Origin: a virus | Taxonomy: Duplodnaviria > Caudoviricetes | Reading direction: 5' to 3' (one strand) | Virus record (IMG/VR): IMGVR_UViG_3300037465_000426 | Location: 1 to 32,513 of that record | Length of the DNA stretch: 32,513 nt | Part shown: piece by piece, positions 1,495 through 32,513 of the stretch | How positions within the stretch are numbered: the stretch's first letter is position 1 | How the letters are laid out: each line of letters starts with the position of its first letter | Notes under the pieces: model-generated | What the model was told of the DNA's origin: nothing | Seen by the model: the letters and a program-made list of their open reading frames with translations, nothing else | Database searches by the model: none | Made by a program: the position numbers and the translations under genes

Positions 1495-3581
1495 ATGAAA
1501 CACATCCCTCTTAAAGACCGGGCATTCGAAATTATCAACGGCGAACTTTTTGTTTTCGAACAATGCCTGCAACAATCCGGACTTTCAACAAATTATTACA
1601 GGAAAGAAAAATGTAGGGGTAATCAACGGCTCACCTTTATAGATCACCCTAAAGACAGGCGTTATAACCTGGTTTCCTTCGAGACGTTGAGTAATGACCA
1701 CAAACAAAAAATCAAAGCCCGCTACGGCGACCCCTACGACTTTGTAGCCAGGGAGCCAATATTAAAATTAGTCCACAAGGACGACAAAGCCGAACAACAT
1801 TATATCAACTACACATTTGCAAGCGGTAACAAAATTCCAATGCGCCGCATCACACAATACAGCCGAGCCGCATCCTGGCTTAACATGCTAAAAGATGTAA
1901 TTGAAAGCGGAAAAAAAATCATCAAGGAATTATCAATATCTGCACCCACGTTTTACAACCACGTAAAAGCAATGATTGATATTGAAAAAGAAAACGGAGC
2001 CAGCGAAAAATACGAAGGCACGCATCAATTGCCGGGCGACTTTCCCTCCAGCTACGGCAGGCTGCTATTGAAAGTGAAAGAATATATGACAGCAGGGTAT
2101 GATCTTCTTATTGATAAGATGCACGAAAACAAACGTGCGGCAAAAGTAAAAGATGAAGTAAGCGAAGCACAACTCATTACATTACTGGAGGACCCGCGCC
2201 AGCTTGATGATGTAATAATCGCCATGTTTTACAATTTATGGGCAAAAGAAAATAATTACAAGCCTATCACCCCGCCAACCGTAGGCGTGTGGCGACGGAA
2301 AAAAGAACACCTCATCGTCATGAGCCGCGAGGGCAACGGCGCCTTCAACGAAAAGTATATTCGCCAGGTAAAAGGCCTGCTGCCGTCAAAGCCACTATAC
2401 CTTGTTGAGCACGATGATAATAATCTTGACTTTCTTTTCTCGGATGCTGATTATGATTATCACAAATACATCTCCATTTGTGTAGTCGATAGCAGGACAA
2501 AACTTATCCTTGGCAAATCATACACCGTAGGCCAAAGCCCGCAGCAATGGCAAATCTATCACGCCTGGCTCGACGCCATGTATTACATACGCAGCATTAC
2601 AGGCGCCTGCATCTTCCCTTCGAAATAAAAGCAGACAAATGGGCAAGCAAATCGCTTTCGCCATTTTATAATAAAATCGCCAAAATAATTCCCGCAGCGC
2701 ACAGCAACAAACACCGGGGTTATATCGAACCCTATTTCCGCAGGCCCCTGTGGAAAAGAGCGCAACAGCTTGTCACCAACCCCGACATGATGAACTGGAC
2801 CGGGAATAATATCAGCGCAAAATTCCGCGGCGTAAACCAGGAAGCGCTCAACGGCAGTCAAAAAAACCGCCCGCTCATCGGAAACCAGGCCGAATTGCAG
2901 ATTGAAAATTTCTTTCACCTGCTTCGCCACATGCCCGATATAAAGCGAAATAATATGAATGCCGCAAGCAAAGAAGAGCAGTTCGTATCTGAATGGAACC
3001 AGCTGCACCCGGATGATAAGCGGACCATCACAGACCAACAGTTCCTGCTCACCTTCGGCATTAAACATGCACCCGCCCATTCACCCGACGGAATCACCAT
3101 TACCAACCGCGGTGTTGAGCCTCAGATAAACGGCAACAAATATTCCTATGATCTTCCCGAAAGCTGGATGTATAACAAACTTATCGGCGCCAAAGTAAAC
3201 GTGTTGTATGATCCCTTCGACATGAGCCGTATCCTGGTCACCAATTATGATGACATTCGATTTATTGCCACATCCGCACAACTGACACCACGGGCACTGA
3301 AAGACCACTATACCGGAAGCCGAACCTATTTAAACGCATTGCTGGCAGAAAAGAAGCAACAAGTGGGTGAAGTAAGCAAAGCTTCAGCGGCACGTAAGAA
3401 ACTGGTGAATCATCACTACTACAACGCTGAAGCTGTTTTACAAAGCGGAAGCCTGGTCAAGGAAATTAAGAACGGCGCAGAACAAAAGTTTATTGAACAG
3501 CAAATCGTTGAGCAGGAAACATTTCTCGACAATAACCACGACTTTTCACAATTCTATAATCACAAAAACACTACATCATGA
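1495..3581 (+). pseudogene. MuA-like DDE transposase split by a -1 frameshift near 2609 (ORFs 1495-2628 and 2547-3581; ~695 aa if joined)
   Basis: First acidic motif HDDNNLD lies in ORF1; EIKADKW and GYIEPYF lie in ORF2; C-terminal 'ITNRGV...YDPFDMSRILV' resembles the Mu transposase C-terminal domain; one extra G in ggc gcc tg cat ctt ccc restores ...TGAWHLPFEIKAD. Confidence 0.85.
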
Positions 3582-19489: not shown

Positions 19490-20560
19490 ATGAAATCTAT
19501 TCTGAAAATTCTGTTTGCCCTGGCATTGGCGGTAACCACATTGAATTATATAAAGGTAGCGCCTGATGCATTAACCGCCACAATCACCGCAACGATTGGA
19601 GTCGTTTTGATGGCGATGATATTGCCGGTAAAGCACCTGCATGTAAATGAGCTGTATGCTGTGACGCCGGTTAAAGTGTGGCAGGCATATATAATTGAGA
19701 AGTTGCGCAGGATGAATGACTGGCTGATGCGAAGCAGCGATGCGACAGCCAAGGTGCTGGCAGGCTCTACCGTGTATATACCGCAGGCCGGCAACGATCC
19801 TGTGGTGGAAGTGAATGCAACTACCTACCCGGGCACGGCCGTGAACCGCGAAGACAGCGATGTGAATTATGCGCTTGATATTTTCCGCACCGTACCTCAT
19901 CGTGTGCCCTGGGCAGAGCTGCAGGACATTTCGTATGATAAGCTCGACAGTGTGCTTGCCGCGCATACCAATACGCTGATAGAAGCCATTGGCGACAGCA
20001 TGCTGATACGCTGGGCTGCTATAGTGGCCGCGCAGCAAATAACCACCACCGGCGCCGATGTGTCAGGGGTTGGTAACCAGACAGGAACAAGGAAGGGATT
20101 CTCACACAAGGATTTGATGAAGGCGATGATAAAATTCAATACTCAGAATGTGCCCAAGCAAGGCCGTGTATGTGTGATTGACGATAATATGTATGAGTAC
20201 TTCTATGATGAGATGACGGATAAGCAATTTAATGCGTTTAACCAGTTTGCCAACAACCAGACCGGCCAGCTTGGAAGGCTGCATAGCTTCGACATCTACA
20301 GCCGCAGCGCCGTGCTGAATTATGGAGCGGCATCGCTTACTCCCAATGCTTATGCTGCCGCTCAGCTTGCAACAGATAATCTTGCTTCTCTTTGCTGGCA
20401 CAGTGATTTTGTTGAGCGGGCACAGGGCGAAATAAAGCGATTTTATAATAAAGACCTGGCCATTGAATACGGCGACCTGACCAGCGCCATCGTAAAATTC
20501 GGCGGACGCAAAAAGCGGAGTGATAATGTGGGTGTGATCAGCATTATACAAGGGGCGTGA
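19490..20560 (+). CDS. Major capsid protein with a hydrophobic N-terminal extension
   Basis: Follows protease/scaffold; TVYIPQAG..P, ISYDKLDSV, VPKQGR, GQLGRLHSFDIYSRS patterns typical of HK97-fold capsids. Confidence 0.85.
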   Translation: MKSILKILFALALAVTTLNYIKVAPDALTATITATIGVVLMAMILPVKHLHVNELYAVTPVKVWQAYIIEKLRRMNDWLMRSSDATAKVLAGSTVYIPQAGNDPVVEVNATTYPGTAVNREDSDVNYALDIFRTVPHRVPWAELQDISYDKLDSVLAAHTNTLIEAIGDSMLIRWAAIVAAQQITTTGADVSGVGNQTGTRKGFSHKDLMKAMIKFNTQNVPKQGRVCVIDDNMYEYFYDEMTDKQFNAFNQFANNQTGQLGRLHSFDIYSRSAVLNYGAASLTPNAYAAAQLATDNLASLCWHSDFVERAQGEIKRFYNKDLAIEYGDLTSAIVKFGGRKKRSDNVGVISIIQGA

Positions 20561-20932: not shown

Positions 20933-21325
20933 ATGAAAAAAATATTCTTTGCTCTTGGATTCCTGTTCCTGGTTGCTTGTTATGCACAGGCCCAGGCACC
21001 GTTTACACACACGATGAAGAATGCAAGCATCAGCGCTGCCGACACAATTACCAGCGGCATAGTGGAAGATGGCGTGGTGCAGTTTGAATACAATTATACC
21101 GAGACAAGCGGAACAACCGCCGGAAAAATATACCTGGAAGGAAAGTTTCTCGGCTCCTGGGTGAAGCTGGACAGCTTATCATTATCCGATGTAACAACGA
21201 TACAGACGCTGAGAACTATTGTCACACAGACGAGTTATAAGTATTACCGATTTGTAAACACCAATACGTCAAACGCAACGGGCACGGTGCTGGCCGGCTA
21301 CCTGCGAAGGCCGAACGGGAGATGA
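20933..21325 (+). CDS. Signal-peptide-bearing beta-rich protein in the structural operon
   Basis: MKKIFFALGFLFLVACYAQA-Q signal peptide with A-x-A; DTI and DSL sequons. Confidence 0.75.
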   Translation: MKKIFFALGFLFLVACYAQAQAPFTHTMKNASISAADTITSGIVEDGVVQFEYNYTETSGTTAGKIYLEGKFLGSWVKLDSLSLSDVTTIQTLRTIVTQTSYKYYRFVNTNTSNATGTVLAGYLRRPNGR

Positions 21326-22913: not shown

Positions 22914-24800
22914 ATGCCGGATGAAAGCATACGCATACCGATTGAGATTGTAGATGGTAAGGCGATAAGCTCGCTGAAAAATCTGGAAAAAACTGCTACG
23001 GCTACGGCTGGCAGCGTGCAGCGTATTACCACGCCAACCAACCAGGCAATGTTTGCATTAACAAATTTTGGCCGCATGGCTCAGGACCTTCCTTACGGTT
23101 TGATTGGCGTTGCCAATAATATTACACCACTGATTGAATCGTTAGCGGCGTTAAGTAAACAGGCAATGGCTACTGGTGTAAGTATGGGTAAGCAATTACT
23201 TTCCTCATTAGTAGGAGGCGGAGGTTTAATCTTGGGTTTTTCCCTTCTTACAAGCGCCATGCAGTTTGCCACGCTGGGTTTATCGGCATTTACACGAGGC
23301 GGCTTTGGTGCAAAAAAAGCTACGGCAGAAATGAAAGATGAAGTTTTTCAATTCGCAAAAGTGCTTGACGATGTGGCGCGGCAGCTTTCGAAAGATGCGG
23401 CAAGAGTAAATGAACTGTTTGCTGCACTCAACAGTGGCAAGGTGAATTTTAATGAAAGAAAGGCTGCATTAAAGGAATTGAAAAATATTAATAAGGATTA
23501 CTTCGGCAGCTTAAAAGATGAGGATGGCGTGATAAAAGGATTGCAAGCGGCTTATGATGGTTACTTACAACGTATTGTACAAATTGGAAAGGCAAAGGCA
23601 ATACAGACACAGCTTACAAAATTGTTTGATAAAAAACTGGAGCTGCAACTTTCTGTTGACACCGGATTTATAAGCGCAATAGACCCAAACGTTGCCGCCG
23701 AAGCAGGCAGATTAAGAAAAGAATTAGAGGCATTAGGTGGTCCTGTTGACCGGGCTACAGAAAAATTTGATGCGTTTAATAAGACACAAGCTGAACGTTT
23801 GCGATTACAGCAGAGGATACATCAACTCGAAAGCGGAGGCGCATTGAAGTTTTTACCCGGGGTAGCGCAGGGAGTGCAAAGGCAAATTGATAGAATTGAT
23901 CTGCAGATCAATGCTCTTTCGAAAATGTTCGGAGATATTGGAGAATTTGATATACCAACGCCAGATGACAGCGATGCGGAAAAAGCAATGGATAGGATAA
24001 TTGCCCGTGCACGATTATTTGTAAAAGAGTTTGGTGATGTGTTTATTGTTCCCGACCTGGAAGAAAGTTTCTTTAGGAATAAGGCCGCTGTGTTTGCCGA
24101 TGCACAAAAACTATTGGATGATGTAAGCAAGGGTAATTTGAAAATAAGATTGTTTGTTTTACCTGAAATAGAAGTGCCGGATGTAAAGCTGCCAGAATTT
24201 GACGCAGATGGGAAGATGCGTGAAAGCATACTTGAGGGGATGCGGAAAGAATTTCAGGAATCCTTTGTGCCGGATATATCAATTGATGTAGCTGCTTTCA
24301 ATGAAAATATTAAAACGCAATTTGAAAAGGCGCTTGACCAGGGCAATTTCAAACAGGCACTTGACCTGGTGGATGTGAATACATCGAACCTCATGTTTGA
24401 CGGGCTGGATGAAAGAGTACGGAATTCTGCATTATTGATTAATGATACTCTTACGCCGGCATTTGAAGGTTTGTTTGATGCGATACTGAAAGGAGAAAAC
24501 CCGATAAAAGCCTTTTTCAATTCAATTATTCAAAGCATAAACCAGGTGATAAAAAGATTGATAGCCGCCGCCATACAGGCGGCGATACTATCGGCAATAA
24601 GCGGGGGTACCACAAGTTTTGGCAGTGCATTCAGCAGGTTGTTTGGTATTGGCGGCAGCGCCAACTTCGGCAATCGTGTAGCCTTTGCCGGCGCAGGGGG
24701 CAGCCAGGCGAATATAAACGTGAGAGGCGTTTTGCGGGGGACGGACATTTATTTGAGCGGCATCGCTGGCGGAAGGAGTATTGGAAGAGCGGGGGGGTGA
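22914..24800 (+). CDS. Tail tape measure protein
   Basis: 628 aa, helical, Ala/Gly-rich; QDLPYGLIGVANNITPL motif; hydrophobic segments; follows the chaperones. Confidence 0.85.
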   Translation: MPDESIRIPIEIVDGKAISSLKNLEKTATATAGSVQRITTPTNQAMFALTNFGRMAQDLPYGLIGVANNITPLIESLAALSKQAMATGVSMGKQLLSSLVGGGGLILGFSLLTSAMQFATLGLSAFTRGGFGAKKATAEMKDEVFQFAKVLDDVARQLSKDAARVNELFAALNSGKVNFNERKAALKELKNINKDYFGSLKDEDGVIKGLQAAYDGYLQRIVQIGKAKAIQTQLTKLFDKKLELQLSVDTGFISAIDPNVAAEAGRLRKELEALGGPVDRATEKFDAFNKTQAERLRLQQRIHQLESGGALKFLPGVAQGVQRQIDRIDLQINALSKMFGDIGEFDIPTPDDSDAEKAMDRIIARARLFVKEFGDVFIVPDLEESFFRNKAAVFADAQKLLDDVSKGNLKIRLFVLPEIEVPDVKLPEFDADGKMRESILEGMRKEFQESFVPDISIDVAAFNENIKTQFEKALDQGNFKQALDLVDVNTSNLMFDGLDERVRNSALLINDTLTPAFEGLFDAILKGENPIKAFFNSIIQSINQVIKRLIAAAIQAAILSAISGGTTSFGSAFSRLFGIGGSANFGNRVAFAGAGGSQANINVRGVLRGTDIYLSGIAGGRSIGRAGG

Positions 24801-24875
24801 GCCCCAACCCCCCTAAAGGGGGCTATGCAGAATTTATGAATGAAATGTTTTTTATTAACAATATAAAAATATGGG

Positions 24876-24909
24876 GAGTTTGCTTCGTCGTTGTGCTCCT
24901 CGCAACTGC
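24876..24909. repeat. REP-like remnant GAGTTTGCTTCGTCGTTGTGCTCCTCGCAACTGC
   Basis: TTGC...GCAA hairpin; related to GAGCCTGCTTCGCTCAGCTCGCAAG at 21580-21604. Confidence 0.45.
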
Positions 24910-24910
24910 T

Positions 24911-27007
24911 ATGCCGAATGAGCTGATTAATTACAGAATCAATTTTAAAAACCGGAAAGGAGATAATATCTATATCACTATACAGGATGTAAAGAATTAT
25001 GATGCGGGTGACCCGACAGGCGCAACGGTGACGGAAGTGAGCCTGGTTGGCGGTGCTAACCCGCTGGTGATTGAGACATTTAATGCAAACGGCACGCCAT
25101 ACGGAATATTCGGAAAGCGGGCAGTAATAAGCTTTAAGAGTACTCAGGATTACGGGATGCACACATTCAGCGAGGGTGAAGATGGAAGATTTTACGTTGT
25201 AATAAGTATCAATAGCGGCAACCCGGTCATCTTCCGCGGCTTTGTGGTAATGGATGATAATGAAGAAGAATATGTGCCGCCGGGTACAGATGTTTTCATT
25301 GTTGCCACAGACGGGCTTGGCCTGCTGAGGGGGGTGGAGCTGACAGATTTTGACGGCCTGCGGATTGACCCGGATATACCGCTGACAAGGATTAAGCTGC
25401 TGGCTTATGCACTGTATAAAACGGGGCTCGGAATTGACATAATTGTGCAGGATAATCTATTCAACGGGCTGATGCTTTACCGCAGCACGGGGCCTGATAT
25501 AAAAAACAATCCCTGGGACCAAAGCTGGCTGCTGCCGATAACATTTGAGAAGGAAGTAAATGTGATGGATGATTGTTTTACCGTGATTGAAAAATTGCTT
25601 GGCACCACACTGCGGCTGAGCTACAGCAACGATATGTGGTGGGTGCAGCGGGTAAATGAGATGAAGCTTCCAACGATAAGCTATACGAGATTTAATTCGG
25701 GCGGGGTAGCTGTAAGTGGTGTATTGGATGATACAACACACATCATCGAGGTGGGGCATGCTTCGGTTAAGGATGTGTATTTTATTGCACGGCAAACAAG
25801 GGTGAAGAACCGCAGGCCGTCAAAGAAAGTGCAGGTGGAATATAATTTTGATATTCCTAAAGATATGCCGAGAAATAAAGATTTTATCCGCGGCAACATC
25901 ATTACTCCTTTGCTTGATAATGGAATAGTGGAGTATGCAATTGATGACTGGCGGTATACGGGCTATCCTCTGCGGCCCGATCTGAATACAGCTCCGACCG
26001 GCACCGCAAGAATATGGAGGGTTTTTGAGGATAAGTATGAAAAAGAACGATATGTATTGCTGAGCAACACAACGACTCCGAATTTTTTGATAAGTAAAGA
26101 ATTGCTGGTGACGGTAAATGACAAGTTTTCTTTTTCCGTTGATTGGCGATGGAATTTCAATAAAAGCGGCGGCAGTATTACACACCCGATCTTTCATGTG
26201 GTGCTGCAGGCGACTGACGGGACTAACTGGTTTATGGATAATGACGGCACCTGGTATCAAAGCAATGCCACATGGAGTGTGAATGTAAAAGAGATTGAAG
26301 AGGTGTGGACACTGAACCAGGTGGATGAGCGGGAATGGAGAACGACCAGCGTTGAGAGCAGGCCATTGCCACGAGATGGTAAGCTGATGTTTTGTTTGAA
26401 CAATTCCGGCTACATAGGCGCCGTAACCAGCGATGTGTATGTAATGTTTCAAAATTTATCTTTTACATACATACCGTATGAAAATGGCAGCTATAAAAAA
26501 TATTCAGGAGAAAGAGTAACCAATACACAGAGCGGCAGATACAGTAAGCCGCAGGAGAATCAGCTGTATGTCAGTGCCGCAAGAAAATATTTATACAGAG
26601 GCGTACTTGTAAAGTATAATGCCGGCGTAATCACATTACTTAATGACCGGTGGTTTGACTGGGCGATGTATCATGCGGGATTGACTACTGATCCGCCGCC
26701 ACATGATAAATATCTGAAGTGGCCGGCGCTCGATCATTTTAACCACTACAGAAAAAGCCAGCGTGAATTTGCTTTTTCGCTTCGCGGTCTGATTGCTGAT
26801 ACGGGAAAGCATTGTGATATAATAAACCTTTACAAGATTACGGTGAACAGCAGGCACAACAACAACAAAGCATTTCTACTTGTGAGCATGAAGCAGGACT
26901 GGGAGGAATGCACATGGGATGGCACGATGGTGGAGATAGATGACAGCGGGGACAGGTTTGCAGCGCCAGGAACATTTACAAGCGAACACAAGTATATAGA
27001 AACATAA
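24911..27007 (+). CDS. Tail tip/baseplate hub-type structural protein
   Basis: Follows the tape measure; IFRGFV..., VATDGLGLL motif; ATG at 24911 preferred over GTG 24797 because the upstream part is repeat DNA. Confidence 0.75.
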   Translation: MPNELINYRINFKNRKGDNIYITIQDVKNYDAGDPTGATVTEVSLVGGANPLVIETFNANGTPYGIFGKRAVISFKSTQDYGMHTFSEGEDGRFYVVISINSGNPVIFRGFVVMDDNEEEYVPPGTDVFIVATDGLGLLRGVELTDFDGLRIDPDIPLTRIKLLAYALYKTGLGIDIIVQDNLFNGLMLYRSTGPDIKNNPWDQSWLLPITFEKEVNVMDDCFTVIEKLLGTTLRLSYSNDMWWVQRVNEMKLPTISYTRFNSGGVAVSGVLDDTTHIIEVGHASVKDVYFIARQTRVKNRRPSKKVQVEYNFDIPKDMPRNKDFIRGNIITPLLDNGIVEYAIDDWRYTGYPLRPDLNTAPTGTARIWRVFEDKYEKERYVLLSNTTTPNFLISKELLVTVNDKFSFSVDWRWNFNKSGGSITHPIFHVVLQATDGTNWFMDNDGTWYQSNATWSVNVKEIEEVWTLNQVDEREWRTTSVESRPLPRDGKLMFCLNNSGYIGAVTSDVYVMFQNLSFTYIPYENGSYKKYSGERVTNTQSGRYSKPQENQLYVSAARKYLYRGVLVKYNAGVITLLNDRWFDWAMYHAGLTTDPPPHDKYLKWPALDHFNHYRKSQREFAFSLRGLIADTGKHCDIINLYKITVNSRHNNNKAFLLVSMKQDWEECTWDGTMVEIDDSGDRFAAPGTFTSEHKYIET

Positions 27008-27041: not shown

Positions 27042-27731
27042 ATGGGAAGAGCAATAGTATATGGAAAAAATGTGGTGCTGAAGGTATGGAAGGTGAATGC
27101 CTACTACCCTGTGGCATGTGCTGTGAGTGTGAGGTACTGGCTGACGGAGCAATATGAAGACACCAGTACACCGGATAGCGGCCGGTATGTGACGAGGGCG
27201 CCGGTGAACAAAGCTGAATGGGGGATAGATTTTACCGGCGTAACGGTGCTGAAGGATGATGTGGATACGCTGTGGTTTGGGTGGGAGTTTATGCTGGAAA
27301 TAGTGCGAAGCCAGGGAGTGAATGTGCAGGTAATATTCACCGACAAGAATGGATTTACAAAAAACTTGACCGGGCATGTGTTTTTACCATCGACAAGCAT
27401 CGAAGGAACGGCTGGGGATGTAGCAAAAGACACAATCAGTTTTTTGGGCAATGGTGCGGTAAATTTTGATTCATTAATAACGCCAAATGTACCACCGAGA
27501 ATGAGACTTGAATGGATAGCAAGCGACGGGCAAACGGATTTTCAAAACAATTCGCTGATTGGTAAAACGATTGCGAACATTGAACACGTGAGCCGGGAAG
27601 GAGATGATAAATACCAGCCGGTGACGATAGCGCCAACCGAAAGACAGGTTCAATTGGATGCAGTAAATGGGAAGCTGATTTTCAAAATAGCGGCGGATGC
27701 GGGGGAATACATTTTTGCGCTGGTGAGTTGA
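27042..27731 (+). CDS. Second tail-tube-like protein with an extra C-terminal domain
   Basis: GKNVVLKV..PVACAVSV..EDTSTPDSG..WGIDFTGV..ISFLGNGA resembles TP901-1-type tube proteins; ~80-aa extension. Confidence 0.6.
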   Translation: MGRAIVYGKNVVLKVWKVNAYYPVACAVSVRYWLTEQYEDTSTPDSGRYVTRAPVNKAEWGIDFTGVTVLKDDVDTLWFGWEFMLEIVRSQGVNVQVIFTDKNGFTKNLTGHVFLPSTSIEGTAGDVAKDTISFLGNGAVNFDSLITPNVPPRMRLEWIASDGQTDFQNNSLIGKTIANIEHVSREGDDKYQPVTIAPTERQVQLDAVNGKLIFKIAADAGEYIFALVS

Positions 27732-27785
27732 TAGGTTGGTTAGTTGGTTAGTTGATTAGTTAATTCGTTGATTTCTTGATTTGTT

Positions 27786-30700
27786 ATGATAAGAAAAATT
27801 ATATTGACATTGTCGATTTGTTTTGCTGCGCTGCCCAGTATGGCGCAGCCGGGCAAGTTCAATCAAAACCTGAACAGGCAGCGGCATTTTGGATTGATGA
27901 CGGATACGTTTTTTTCCCTGCCGCGGGATACTTTCCGCACCAATGTAAATACAAGTGCATACAAAAGTTATCCCTGGATGGGATGGAAGGGAAGCAAAGT
28001 ATTTATGTGGGATACACTGAATACAAAGTTTGTCGGTCTTGGAATTGACAGCGTGTATGTGAAGACAGGAACGGACAGCGTGTTTGTAAGGGAATACGGG
28101 GTCACAAAATTTTCATTTCTGAAAACGCCAGGCGCAGGTGTATATGTAGATACGGTATATGCAAGGAATGATACATTGTTTTATAGAAAAAACAGTGTAG
28201 AGTACGCTGTGAGAAAGATAACAGATGCGGAGAGTGTGCAGGATGCGATTGGTGCAATGATCAACGCAAGCCTGCAATATGTGGATGTAACTCCTGTACT
28301 TGCTATCAATGATCGTGATTTTGGTGATATAACTACAAGCGGCAGCGGCCTGACCTGGACAGTGGATGACCAGGCGATAACTTATAATAAGATACAGAAT
28401 GTAAGTGCTATTGACAGGGTGCTTGGAAGAAGATTTAGTGGTGGCAGTGTGGAAGAGCTGACGGGTGATGATGTGCTTGGCATGCTTGATATTTTTACGA
28501 GTGTTGACAATGGCATAGTGCCTGCAAGTGGTGGCGGCAGCACTAATTTTTTGCGGGCTGATGGCACATGGGGTGTGCCTGCGGGGACCGCCACCAACAA
28601 CACAAACGCCGGCGCCGGTTATCGTCTGCTCATACCTTCCACGCAGGGGATAAAGACAATATTCGGAGCCTTCGGGATACTGAACGACAGCACAAGCAAT
28701 ACGGATGCGATTACACAAAAGGCGGATACTACCAGCGGTGGCCTTACAAGCTGGTTGCGGACAAAATTTGTTATAGATTCTCTCGATGCCGCCGGGTGGG
28801 ATCCACAAGATTTGGAAAGCGTATTGAATACAGGAAGTAATATCACCGGGACGAAAACAATCAATAGCAGTGGTTCGCTTAATATTAACAATTCGGGTTC
28901 ATTCGAGGTTAAGATTTCCTCTGGCTCAAACTATTTTCGGCTTTTCGGAGACGCTTCAAATAGAGGCATGATAGAAACAACTGGCGGTAGTAATATGTTT
29001 GCAAAGTCAGAATATTTTTCATCGCCCGGCCTTGGTAATAATATTCTTCATAGTCGTGTTATCAGCAGCTTAACAGTTGGGACTTATTCAAGACAAAGTG
29101 ACACTGCATTTTTATTTCAGGATTCCAGCAGTTCTAAGTTGACAAAATTTTATGTAAAATATCTGCCATCCGATCCGGGCGATAAAGCAATTCGTTATAA
29201 CACTTCAACCGGGCAATTTACTATTGCGGACACAACTACTGGTGGTGGTGGCTACACCGATGAACAGGCACAGGATGCAGTCGGTGCAATGATTAATGCC
29301 TCATTGCAGTATGTTGATGCTACACCGTTGCTTGCGATTGCCGACAGGGATTTCGGAGACATCACCACAAGCGGCAGCGGATTGACGTGGACTATTGACA
29401 ATCTTTCGGTGACTAATGCCAAGATTAATGATGTAGCGTGGAGTAAAGTAACAGGCACGCCAACGACGTTAAGCGGCTACGGAATTACCGATGCGCTTAA
29501 TAGTAGTACAACTTCAACGCAGGACGGATATTTTGGTGACATATATTTATTCGACGACGGAACGCCATCGCATTATACAAAGATTACGAATAGCGGGAAT
29601 AACACATTGTTGCGGACGCTTAACCTGAATGTTAATGATGCTGACAGGACAATATCTCTATCCGGTGATTTAACAGTGAGCGCCACAGCAACGGTAAGCG
29701 GAACTAATACTGGCGACGTAACATTGGCAGGGACACCGGACTACATAACTATTTCCGGGCAGGTAATAACACGGGGCCTTATTGACCTTGCTACGGATGT
29801 AACCGGTGACCTGTCTTTTGCTAATATTATTCAAGTTGCCGGATTCTCGGTTTTGGGAAAATCCACAACAGGTACTGGTGATGTAGCTGCAATCACGGCT
29901 GCCGCCGATGAAGTTTTAAGGAGAAGCGGTAGTGGTGATCTATTATTTGGTACACTGGTAACAAATAATATTGGCAACGACCAAGTGACTTTTGCTAAAT
30001 TTCAAAACATAACTTCATCGCGTCTGCTTGGCCGCACAACGGCTGCCGCTGGCGATGTAGAAGAAATTACCGTAGCCGCACCGCTGACATTTTCTTCGCT
30101 GACTTTAGATTTCGACGAAACCGCTACACTCAGTAATAATGCCCGTGTAGCTGTGAATAAAAATAGCGGCGCAACGGTGGGAACAAGGCGCAGGATAAAC
30201 TTCATTGAAGGCAGCAATATCACTTTAACAATATCGGATGATGCGGGCAATGAAGAAGTGGATGTAACAATTGATGCTGCCGGCGGCGGCGGCGTTAACG
30301 CTGGTACGGCACTCAAAGCTGCTTATTATCCATCTACGGGAAGTACGGTGGATGATTATGCAGGTGTGGAATACGGCAACACGAATTTGAACGTAAAAAT
30401 TACTCAACAGGCAACCGGCGATGTGGCTTTCCAGATTAATAAGATTGCATCCGCAACGGCAAACTTATTTGAAATAAACAGCAGTGGTGGAAGTGGCGGT
30501 GATTATGTGTTGGTAAATAATAACGGCTCAGTAAAAGCGGGGCAAACATTATCGGTTGGCCCGGGCGGGTTGCCAAGCAGCACGCAGTTTTCAGTGAGGC
30601 CAAGTGCAATTAATACAACGATTGCATATTTTGCGACGGATCATAGTGGTACTAATGCCGTTGTAGAATTTGATAATAACGGTACTGCCGGTGCGGGGTA

Positions 30701-32153
30701 TTCTACTTCTTTTCACCTTATTAATGCAACTGGCGATAAAACCGAGTTTAATTTTTACGACGTCGGAGCCGGTACAGCATGGTATGCAGAGGCACGTACA
30801 ATGGTTATAGGTATGCCGGCTAATGTTGCATTTAAATTAAACACAAACGGTACGGATAATAACGGCTTCCGTGTATCTACCGATGGTACATTCACTGTAA
30901 AAGGCAAGTTTATTACCGGGATATCTGCTGGCGACCCGACTGGCAGCAACGGGATGTTCAATTATAATTCGACAACGAATAAATTCAGGATATTCGGTAA
31001 TTCAAGCTGGCAAACTATTATTACGAATACCGCAGCCGAATTCAGCCAATACTTTGACCAGGCGGAAACTGCCGCACCAGCAACGCCATCAACCGGCTTC
31101 GGACGCTGGTATGTTTCTTCAACAGGACTGCCAAGATTTATCAACGACGCAGGGACGGACTACGACCTTACAGCCGGTGGCAGCGGGGGTCACACTATTC
31201 GCAACGAGGGTACAGATTTGACGGCCAGAACAGGATTGAACTTCATCGGCTCAGCGGTTAATGCCGCCGATGATGCTGGTGGCGATGAAACCGAGATTAC
31301 ATTCGATGCAGAAGTGAACGGTATCGCAGATTTGGGAACGAATGGTGTTGTTGCAAGGACGGGTGCTGGAACTTTTGCAGGCAGGACGCTTACTGGTACA
31401 GCTAATCAAGTTGTAATTACCAACGGAGACGGAGTATCTGGAAACCCAACCTTCGATGTCGGCAGCGATATAGTGCAGATTGACCTTGCAAATGTCTATA
31501 CTGCTGGTAATAAACAGACCTTTGACGCAAATGCTACTAATGCGGATATTCGCCTTACAGGACACACGGCAGACCCATCGTCATTGAGCGCAGGTGACAT
31601 CTGGTACGAAAGTACAGCACATATATTGAAGTACCGGGGCAATGCAACAACGAGAACGCTGGTTAATACTGATGAAGCGCAAACACTAACAAACAAGACT
31701 GTTATAGATAACGTATTCACTATTGAAGATAATGGTGATGCTTCAAAGAAGGCACAGTTTGATGGCAGTAATATTCCAGCATCAACTACAATTACACTAA
31801 CTACGCCTTATGTAACCAGCACTATTGTAAGTTTCAAACAAACCAGCGAAGCAACCAATGCGACACCTGTGCCAACGGGTGATGCAAAGAGGAATGAACA
31901 CTACCTGACTGCCCTTTCAGCCAATGCCACTTTCAGCGCACCGAGCGGAACACTGACAAATGGGAATGGTCTGATAATCCGGATTAAAGATAACGGGACA
32001 GCAAGAACACTAAGCTGGAATGCGGTTTTTCGTGGAGGTACAGATATTGCTTTGCCGACGACAACCGTTGTAAACAAGACCATGTATCTCGGATTCATTT
32101 ATAACAGCGCCGATTCAAAATGGGATTTGATTGCATACATTGACAATCTTTAA
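27786..32153 (+). CDS. Large tail fibre/adhesin-like protein with an N-terminal signal peptide
   Basis: 1455 aa, G/T/S/N-rich modular repeats (PTTLSGYGITDA, QTLTNKT, IIRIKDNGTARTLSW C-terminal module); MIRKIILTLSICFAALPSMA-Q leader. Confidence 0.8.
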   Translation: MIRKIILTLSICFAALPSMAQPGKFNQNLNRQRHFGLMTDTFFSLPRDTFRTNVNTSAYKSYPWMGWKGSKVFMWDTLNTKFVGLGIDSVYVKTGTDSVFVREYGVTKFSFLKTPGAGVYVDTVYARNDTLFYRKNSVEYAVRKITDAESVQDAIGAMINASLQYVDVTPVLAINDRDFGDITTSGSGLTWTVDDQAITYNKIQNVSAIDRVLGRRFSGGSVEELTGDDVLGMLDIFTSVDNGIVPASGGGSTNFLRADGTWGVPAGTATNNTNAGAGYRLLIPSTQGIKTIFGAFGILNDSTSNTDAITQKADTTSGGLTSWLRTKFVIDSLDAAGWDPQDLESVLNTGSNITGTKTINSSGSLNINNSGSFEVKISSGSNYFRLFGDASNRGMIETTGGSNMFAKSEYFSSPGLGNNILHSRVISSLTVGTYSRQSDTAFLFQDSSSSKLTKFYVKYLPSDPGDKAIRYNTSTGQFTIADTTTGGGGYTDEQAQDAVGAMINASLQYVDATPLLAIADRDFGDITTSGSGLTWTIDNLSVTNAKINDVAWSKVTGTPTTLSGYGITDALNSSTTSTQDGYFGDIYLFDDGTPSHYTKITNSGNNTLLRTLNLNVNDADRTISLSGDLTVSATATVSGTNTGDVTLAGTPDYITISGQVITRGLIDLATDVTGDLSFANIIQVAGFSVLGKSTTGTGDVAAITAAADEVLRRSGSGDLLFGTLVTNNIGNDQVTFAKFQNITSSRLLGRTTAAAGDVEEITVAAPLTFSSLTLDFDETATLSNNARVAVNKNSGATVGTRRRINFIEGSNITLTISDDAGNEEVDVTIDAAGGGGVNAGTALKAAYYPSTGSTVDDYAGVEYGNTNLNVKITQQATGDVAFQINKIASATANLFEINSSGGSGGDYVLVNNNGSVKAGQTLSVGPGGLPSSTQFSVRPSAINTTIAYFATDHSGTNAVVEFDNNGTAGAGYSTSFHLINATGDKTEFNFYDVGAGTAWYAEARTMVIGMPANVAFKLNTNGTDNNGFRVSTDGTFTVKGKFITGISAGDPTGSNGMFNYNSTTNKFRIFGNSSWQTIITNTAAEFSQYFDQAETAAPATPSTGFGRWYVSSTGLPRFINDAGTDYDLTAGGSGGHTIRNEGTDLTARTGLNFIGSAVNAADDAGGDETEITFDAEVNGIADLGTNGVVARTGAGTFAGRTLTGTANQVVITNGDGVSGNPTFDVGSDIVQIDLANVYTAGNKQTFDANATNADIRLTGHTADPSSLSAGDIWYESTAHILKYRGNATTRTLVNTDEAQTLTNKTVIDNVFTIEDNGDASKKAQFDGSNIPASTTITLTTPYVTSTIVSFKQTSEATNATPVPTGDAKRNEHYLTALSANATFSAPSGTLTNGNGLIIRIKDNGTARTLSWNAVFRGGTDIALPTTTVVNKTMYLGFIYNSADSKWDLIAYIDNL

Positions 32154-32154
32154 T

Positions 32155-32513
32155 ATGAAGAAATTGTTTTTGATATTAATTTTTCCTTTGTTTCTCAGCG
32201 CAGAAAGAAAATCACCGCCAGCGTGGTCTGCTGGCTCATCCACTTCTTCTCAGGTTAAAACGTCTGCCAATTCCTGGACGACAACTAATACCAGTGGCAT
32301 TGGTTCATCCGGGCAGATATGTATTATTGGCCTTGCAACCGACAACCTTACCACAACCGATGGCGATGGCAATGACCATACATCGGTTACTGATGCAAGC
32401 GGAAACACGTTCACGCAGCTTACTGAGTTCACAAACGGGCAAGGCAGCGCCGCTGCCGGCGTTACTGTTTCGATGTGGTATTCCAAATTAACGGGTGCGC
32501 TCGGCAATGTAAC
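32155..32513 (+). CDS. Signal-peptide-bearing Thr/Ser/Gly-rich structural protein, truncated at the window edge
   Basis: MKKLFLILIFPLFLSA...SVTDASGNTFTQL...; open to the end of the window. Confidence 0.7.
   Translation, partial: MKKLFLILIFPLFLSAERKSPPAWSAGSSTSSQVKTSANSWTTTNTSGIGSSGQICIIGLATDNLTTTDGDGNDHTSVTDASGNTFTQLTEFTNGQGSAAAGVTVSMWYSKLTGALGNV

Follow-up and report, generated by a model that had tools for sequence, protein, structure and literature searches.

Where does a tailed phage put together the part that recognises its host? Tailed phages are regarded as being assembled entirely in the cytoplasm, where tail fibres are normally made as proteins without a leader. The virus record IMGVR_UViG_3300037465_000426 of IMG/VR, whose entire 32,513 bases form the window analysed here, holds a gene that departs from this picture. 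The open reading frame (ORF) at 27786-32153, likely this phage's tail fibre, starts with a conserved leader-like N-terminus. The initial annotation had proposed that the protein is exported and meets the periplasmic O-glycosylation machinery of its host. Our best explanation, to which we give a probability of roughly 0.6, is a Sec-exported fibre whose base is glycosylated by the host, whose shaft and tip are bare, and which is joined to tails at lysis. Taken separately, export is very probable, glycosylation of the base is probable, and a place on the virion is somewhat less firmly predicted; the host-recognition part of this phage thus likely matures in the periplasm and not in the cytoplasm. 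The parts of the gene are as follows (a slash marks a cleavage site).

27786..32153, plus strand: tail-fibre-like mosaic protein of 1455 amino acids (aa) with a predicted Sec leader (homologue search, weak DUF5907 match, tip fold)
27786..27845, plus strand: predicted Sec/SPI (signal peptidase I) signal peptide, residues 1-20, S-M-A/Q21 (sequence, hydropathy rule, alignment)
27903..28178, plus strand: base domain with seven D-[ST]-hydrophobic motifs, residues 40-131 (all seven kept in the homologues P0002 and P0003)
28230..28406, plus strand: shaft module, residues 149-207, repeated at residues 493-551 (29262-29438) with 73% identity
28686..29237, plus strand: six further D[ST] motifs, residues 301-484, at chance density
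29256..32150, plus strand: motif-avoiding shaft and tip, residues 491-1455 (1/72 Asp followed by Ser or Thr)
29931..30122, plus strand: DUF5907-like repeat, residues 716-779 (weak, below the Pfam curated cut-off)
31833..32150, plus strand: C-terminal beta-sandwich tip, about residues 1350-1455 (fold; contains the conserved D[ST]KWD)

A predicted leader and a two-sided motif pattern in a likely tail fibre

The naming of this protein as a tail fibre is supported by its position in the tail operon and by its tip fold, which both point there. A sequence search over the full length of the fibre matched 145 proteins, of which 120 were listed, the fibre itself included. Among these listed matches no single alignment covers more than 24% of the fibre, and we therefore regard it as a mosaic protein. 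The shaft module at residues 149-207 is common to leaderless phage fibres and host fibres, and the final 100 residues of the fibre have matches in the P19250A tail fibre protein and in minor tail proteins of mycobacteriophages. For a model of the tip (predicted local distance difference test, pLDDT, 69), there are 78 viral structures that match at E<=0.001, tail fibre and minor tail proteins among them. Against the PDB the tip model has no match at E<=0.001, the best being tailspike domains, and neither the whole fibre nor the 698-aa tail-tip protein encoded upstream has a sequence match there.

The N-terminus reads MIRK, 12 hydrophobic residues and P-S-M-A/Q21. It has a basic n-region, a hydrophobic h-region and small residues at -3 and -1, conserved in homologues based on the hydropathy rule and alignment. 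The signal peptide ending in S-M-A/Q that had been annotated here is thus seen both by rule and by eye, and is kept in diverged homologues. Cys12 lies outside any lipobox and is absent in the homologue on contig L004.

The fibre contains 106 Asp. The first seven, at residues 40, 48, 76, 88, 97, 122 and 129, were described as uniformly D-[ST]-hydrophobic, and all seven are (DTF, DTF, DTL, DSV, DSV, DTV, DTL); shuffles of residues 21-135 contain 1.2 motifs on average, and 0/20000 reach seven. Two of the seven are D-T-F, F being an uncommon third residue that occurs at about 2% of motifs (PMC12871550, Fig. 1 legend). The count of six further motifs (DST, DTT, DSL, DTA, DSS, DTT) also holds, at chance level: residues 136-490 are not enriched, with 6/27 Asp followed by Ser or Thr and 6.2 expected. 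Past them the pattern reverses. The initial annotation had counted by hand about 70 distal Asp with one before Ser or Thr; the exact figure for residues 491-1455 is 1/72 (DSK, residue 1443) where 15.9 are expected (binomial 3.4e-7). No other residue is comparably depleted before Ser or Thr in this part, the next being T (P=0.004). The boundary at residue 491 was picked by hand, and we corrected for this with a boundary-free run-length statistic. At most 69 Asp in a row lack a following Ser or Thr, a run that 0/5000 shuffles reach and that has P=8e-5 against the lower D[ST] rate of leaderless fibres. Over the whole mature fibre the extended motif stands at chance (13 versus 12.9 expected).

The motif pattern tracks the leader among homologues

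The 119 homologues among the matches listed, to which the following ratios refer, comprise 23 with a leader (21 by rule, 2 by eye), 91 leaderless proteins and 5 that start mid-gene and were set aside. The comparison of leader-bearing with leaderless proteins stands in for one between Bacteroidota and other hosts. At residues 20-150 the observed/expected ratio (O/E) of the extended motif is 3.95 with a leader versus 0.73 without (n=91), and past residue 500 that of D[ST] is 0.47 versus 0.70. After dereplication to 81 clusters (19 leader-bearing versus 56 leaderless), the D[ST] O/E is 2.13 versus 0.75 in the base (P 2e-5) and 0.47 versus 0.73 in the distal part (P 5e-6). Within modules aligned to the window fibre, D[ST] accounts for 44/612 in leader-bearing and 231/1823 in leaderless proteins (Fisher 1.6e-4). 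N[ST] and G[ST] are without such a leader split, and E[ST] runs in the opposite direction. As controls, 19 leaderless ORFs of the window have 36/395 Asp followed by Ser or Thr (42.5 expected), and late-region ORFs of related phages have a D[ST] O/E of 2.24 with a leader (n=126) versus 0.89 without (n=1275).

Close relatives keep the motifs while changing their letters. P0002 and P0003 retain all seven base motifs with altered second and third letters, and the L004 homologue has 7/7 in its own first 150 residues. Aligned motifs in these three proteins are swapped among DTF, DTM, DSM and DSF, among DTL, DTA and DTV, and among DTV, DTI and DSI. We also compared P0070 with a Niabella fibre for the idea that a leader had been added before the 'KISEL'-type N-terminus of ordinary fibres; the comparison gave no support.

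Could the pattern be structural or vestigial, the motifs acting as strand-turn caps in a beta-meander and the leader having come in with a captured host adhesin? In the low-confidence model of residues 1-150 (pLDDT 43) the motifs do stand where strands of a beta-meander begin. The only distal DSK is part of the conserved structural motif D[ST]KWD, present in 5/120 proteins of which 2 are leaderless, and leaderless fibres already under-use D[ST] (O/E 0.5-0.7), so that part of the distal avoidance is structural, a point that also tempers our own explanation. However, the base enrichment is absent from the 91 leaderless homologues, recurs in unrelated N-terminal domains and is specific to Asp. 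When the same aligned modules are compared, leader-bearing proteins avoid the motif more strongly, and the leaders of P0002, P0003 and L004 have kept their character although their letters have diverged. We consider a purely structural or vestigial origin very improbable.

Export, together with selection by the host O-glycosylation system, is well supported by these sequence comparisons. The proposal that clustering and avoidance reflect periplasmic glycosylation stands in that both track the leader and are specific to Asp, and falls short in that the whole-protein count is at chance. Similarly, for the proposal of a glycosylated proximal and a bare distal part, the enrichment in the first 130 residues and the distal avoidance bear it out, and residues 136-490 do not. 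As a sequence-only marker, the D[ST] profile works to indicate which parts of a phage protein would meet the periplasm.

The same gene slot in related tail loci

The fibre gene follows a set of leaderless tail genes and precedes an ORF that the window end cuts.

22914..24800, plus strand: probable tape measure protein (weak phrog_1716 match, position)
24797..27007, plus strand: leaderless tail-tip protein in hub/Tal position, probable start 24911 (role inferred from position)
27042..27731, plus strand: leaderless tail-tube-like protein of 229 aa with a C-terminal extension (phrog_1407, 8qhs match), directly upstream of the fibre
32155..32511, plus strand: ORF after the fibre, cut by the window end, with a predicted leader (0/5 Asp followed by Ser or Thr)

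Tail-tip alignments run against three samples around a Chitinophaga genome (family level, 401 genomes; order level, 401; class level, 391) matched 4, 6 and 2 genomes, respectively. Twelve loci were read, including L004 and a Niabella prophage; L220 (a non-phage chance match) and L232 (cut off) were dropped, leaving 10 assessable. The gene after the tail-tip genes carries a leader in five of the 10 (L004, L217, L218 by eye, L219 and L234). The N-termini of these slot proteins are mostly unrelated, and their bases are again motif-rich except in L234 (8/90 overall). Fibre-tip domains end two of them, an SO2946-like domain in L219 and Peptidase_S74 in L234. In the prophages L217 and L219, each ORF of at least 250 aa between the tail-tip and lysis genes carries a leader; these phages would therefore otherwise have no fibre. 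The lysis labels in the two loci come partly from reading of translations, with an NlpC/P60 match in L219.

These loci also bear on whether one gene could yield two products, an internal start giving a cytoplasmic tail form beside an exported, glycosylated form with a second role. The in-frame Met19 and Met38 of the fibre could allow this, Met19 lying just ahead of the predicted cleavage site and a Met near position 38 recurring in 4/4 aligned N-terminal domains. Yet Met19 is absent from P0002, P0003 and L004, and the slot proteins of L217, L219 and L234 start with a leader despite their unrelated N-termini. Two products are, in our judgement, improbable.

Alignment searches for the base domain and the tail-tip genes returned only the L004 contig, and single-protein locus searches of viral contigs (tube-like protein, capsid protein, motif pattern) returned nothing. 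The whole-fibre query matched 0/5 loci although the true relative L004 was among them, and is therefore insensitive. There were no shorter relatives of residues 20-148 among 38 candidates, and ESM Atlas matches for these residues are all under 0.9. The 698-aa tail-tip protein has no match in 50,697 phage records. The idea that the C-terminal extension of the 229-aa protein marks phages with exported fibres was ruled out, since in L231 a leaderless gene comes after a 234-aa version of this protein.

In a separate locus (L216:7009-19054), a contractile-tail cluster with a DUF2586 sheath also has genes with leaders in fibre position. The export route may extend to myovirus-like tails.

Exported fibres elsewhere and the question of surface display

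Fibres with leaders are also found in host chromosomes. Residues 21-340 of the window fibre matched 11/401 genomes of the Chitinophagaceae-family sample, with contexts judged from translations and a domain scan. Seven of the 11 matches are leader-bearing fibres among host genes; the remaining four, 3 leader-bearing and 1 leaderless, all lie in phage-like regions. The host fibres share the shaft repeats and the distal avoidance, with D[ST] at 12/160 Asp past residue 500 (six fibres summed, 43.9 expected) and 5/81 in the L213 fibre (24.2 expected). Base Asp lie in motifs in 35/43 cases in phage-context fibres versus 19/43 in host fibres, counts that are hand-pooled and non-independent. That host exported fibres carry the same modules with the same avoidance supports avoidance as a mark of export, and it also keeps cell-surface display as a rival explanation.

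Chitinophagaceae chromosomal clusters of exported fibres with the phage shaft repeat occur at L208:8514-12977 and in L209, L210, L212, L213 and L214, one of them adjoining a type IX secretion system (T9SS) cargo gene. The host locus L211:3582-13847 encodes DUF4402 proteins with chaperone-like and usher-like genes around a 1155-aa exported DUF5907 fibre (3/45 D[ST]). It is possibly a pilus with a phage-like fibre tip.

Among known systems, Bacteroidota O-glycosylation is periplasmic, acts at D-S/T-hydrophobic motifs of non-cytoplasmic proteins and is near-complete at common motifs (PMC12871550, in part). Abundant surface proteins of P. gingivalis avoid the motif (PMC8729774, in part). Like the fibre, the substrates of this system are non-cytoplasmic, carry D-S/T-hydrophobic motifs and show avoidance in parts that end outside the cell. 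The substrates described (PMC12871550 and PMC8729774, each in part) are host proteins, whereas the fibre is phage-encoded and probably part of the virion.

Bdellovibrio MAT fibres are solved, exported, phage-like cell-surface fibres, and those of Bdellovibrio bacteriovorus resemble the window fibre in being long mosaics in which a base domain follows a signal peptide and the tips are phage-like (PMC10769870, in part). The MAT base is a domain of about 130 aa, beta-rich and conserved, after the signal peptide (same source, in part); the base model here reaches pLDDT 43. MATs are chromosomal and sit on the surface of the predator cell; the window fibre lies in a phage tail operon and carries a Bacteroidota-specific glycosylation motif. 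The main text of the MAT paper makes no mention of Bacteroid- (PMC10769870).

Among phages, the P19250A tail fibre, the minor tail proteins of mycobacteriophages Charlie and Tonenili and crAss001 gp22 share with the fibre the position after the tail-tip genes, the shaft modules and the tip fold. Such ordinary fibres are taken as cytoplasmic, and crAss001 gp22 docks by its residues 1-26 (PMC10172136, in part), a region that in the window fibre is instead a predicted cleaved leader. The gp085, gp086 and gp087 proteins of Cellulophaga phage phi18:3 (Pachyviridae, KC821620) have, like the fibre, leader-like N-termini with Gln at +1, and are annotated as structural from tandem mass spectrometry (MS/MS). 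They come from a different family of phages and have no sequence match to the window fibre or its 119 homologues at E 0.01, and we found no literature discussion of their export. For the flavophages Ingeline and Nekkels, one sentence reports large lyase-domain proteins with signal peptides (PMC8776804, in part). These are large Bacteroidota phage proteins like the fibre, and that sentence makes no link to virion assembly or glycosylation. It is nonetheless the nearest literature to what we describe, a likely tail fibre with a predicted, undescribed maturation route. Our literature search, which left subscription journals outside, brought up neither export nor host glycosylation of tail fibres, nor a leader on a capsid protein; supplements 2, 5 and 6 of PMC8776804 may list signal peptides.

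Several observations weigh against an exported virion fibre. All leaders are predictions, called by a simple hydropathy rule and by eye. The homologues are phylogenetically non-independent, and P0120 has a leader yet 0/38 D[ST]. The slot gene is leaderless in the other five of the 10 loci (L084, L231, L233, L235 and L236), and export is therefore optional for this tail type. The leader-bearing proteins of phi18:3 are not motif-rich (5/41, 7/49 and 3/41). MS/MS of purified phage can include co-purifying protein. The window stops inside the next gene with no recognised lysis genes; its right end is thus missing, and a leaderless fibre may lie further right. To these we add the internal Met codons and the host fibres with shared repeats and avoidance described above.

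The rival that makes the strongest use of such observations leaves the fibre off the virion: the protein would still be exported and glycosylated, but would work for the lysogen or infected cell, as an adhesin or receptor decoy on its surface, similar to the exported fibres of the host itself. This rival gains from the leader-bearing fibres in host context, one of which stands beside DUF4402 genes, from the MAT precedent (PMC10769870, in part), from motif avoidance being typical of P. gingivalis surface proteins (PMC8729774, in part), and from the missing right end of the window. The fibre gene, however, lies in the tail operon directly after the tail-tip genes, with no Bacteroidota promoter motif TAnnTTTG of its own upstream on its strand. 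We found no T9SS sorting domain (Por_Secre_tail), lipobox or anchor in the fibre. L217 and L219 are without a leaderless long ORF fit to be a fibre, phage-context bases are richer in motifs than those of host fibres, and the leader-bearing proteins of phi18:3 were found in particle preparations. A role in surface display alone is unlikely.

The phage and its host

Profile scans of the ORFs give the gene order repressor, MuA/MuB-like genes, Gam, portal, terminase, prohead protease, major head protein and tail module, and the phage reads as a Mu-like transposable phage from freshwater. Its tail is apparently non-contractile: a sheath gene had no match among the 37 ORFs scanned, in a window whose right end is missing. 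The MuA-like transposase is split over two overlapping ORFs (1495-2628 and 2547-3581), each matching a different part of phrog_310; this is possibly a frameshift or a split gene.

Winoviridae (Peternella_1, lotta8-1) and Mu-like Porphyromonas phages have a related capsid (26-37%) and Mu-like head genes. The order of the transposase genes is shared with Peternella and the Porphyromonas phages, and the hydrophobic capsid leader with Peternella and lotta8-1. A sheath protein is among the core genes of Winoviridae (PMC8776804 Table 2); none was recognised here, and large tail proteins translated from the Winoviridae and Porphyromonas phages are leaderless, unlike the fibre.

The closest named capsid relatives lie in genomes of Flavihumibacter, Niabella and Ferruginibacter. 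TAnnTTTG is strongly depleted over the window (positions 1-32513; 11 versus 32 expected), which is consistent with avoidance of spurious Bacteroidota promoters. Because of both, the host is likely a Chitinophagaceae bacterium (Bacteroidota).

A second freshwater run contains identical pieces of the window, including 27705-28194, which spans the start of the fibre, and an assembly artefact is therefore unlikely. No RNA holder is listed. Within the window there are no DNA-level repeats of at least 25 bases, and scans for sigma-70 promoters and terminators remained at chance level. Just 5' of the fibre start, at 27732-27785, lies a short imperfect repeat of GGTTAGTT-like units, which is common to other contigs in the runs.

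Further leaders in this phage and its relatives

Two genes of the head region also encode hydrophobic N-termini.

19490..20560, plus strand: major capsid protein with two N-terminal hydrophobic helices, residues 3-19 and 31-47 (conserved in 61/68 homologues)
20933..21325, plus strand: 130-aa protein with a predicted leader (A-Q-A/Q) and two motifs, DTI and DSL (in related phages, homologues come after the capsid gene)

In the capsid leader region (19490-19660) the two helices are followed by a conserved L-[NY]-A/V-like site, here L-Y-A/V at residues 58/59, ahead of the capsid body, and the capsid proteins of lotta8-1 and Peternella have a two-helix leader as well. The 134 distinct capsid ORFs in the fetched loci divide into 56 with one or two hydrophobic segments and 78 with none. 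There is no leader-linked D[ST] shift in the capsid body (1.25 versus 1.39), which is consistent with a hairpin and a capsid body that stays cytoplasmic. The two-helix leader suggests a membrane-tethered capsid precursor.

Homologues of the 130-aa protein adjoin the capsid gene in L007, L098, L115, L163, L206 and L207, and it is possibly an exported head decoration protein. At L128:19489-20883, a leader-bearing G/S/T-rich ORF lies downstream of a leaderless capsid gene, at a distance of about 8.6 kb. Related phages also encode leader-bearing spanin-like proteins at L007:11964-12443, L110:11533-12003, L017:3776-4309 and L163:12035-12526, with D[ST] at 7/10, 6/9, 7/11 and 5/7, respectively. Their richness in motifs suggests host-glycosylated lysis proteins.

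A proposed assembly route and its meaning

In the route that we propose, the fibre would be made late and exported by the host Sec system into the periplasm, where its leader would be cleaved before Gln21. The host O-glycosylation system would then modify the base, leaving shaft and tip bare, and the fibre would fold in the periplasm and dock on the leaderless tail tip once a holin opens the inner membrane at lysis. Long fibres can join finished particles as the last step, as in T4. Glycans on the base probably stabilise or solubilise it while it waits, exposed, in the periplasm, but on the tip or the tightly packed shaft they would probably interfere with folding or with binding of the receptor. 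We infer that cleavage falls before Gln21, that the motifs are occupied, that the fibre trimerises and that it attaches to the tail-tip proteins, which have no leader.

A wider and more tentative picture, which we think may well not hold in full, is a two-compartment build. Tails would be made in the cytoplasm, a cleavable two-helix leader would tether capsid precursors to the inner membrane, and fibres would mature in the periplasm, their base carrying the host's own glycan and their shaft and tip kept free of it by selection; the three would meet only at lysis. Particles would then carry a glycan record of their source cell, and fibre modules would be traded with host adhesins.

New elements here are a Mu-like phage with an apparently non-contractile tail, a measure of how strongly the distal part avoids the motif, and the conserved hydrophobic leader of two helices on the capsid protein. 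What the O-glycan of Bacteroidota does is itself open (PMC12871550, in part), and a saturated base next to a motif-free shaft offers a clean substrate on which to test its function and where it is harmful. If our reading is true, a Sec-routed and host-modified fibre would add a periplasmic step to the assembly of tailed phages. It would also explain the exchange of such fibres with exported bacterial adhesins, and would let host O-glycosylation bear on phage production and perhaps on host range.

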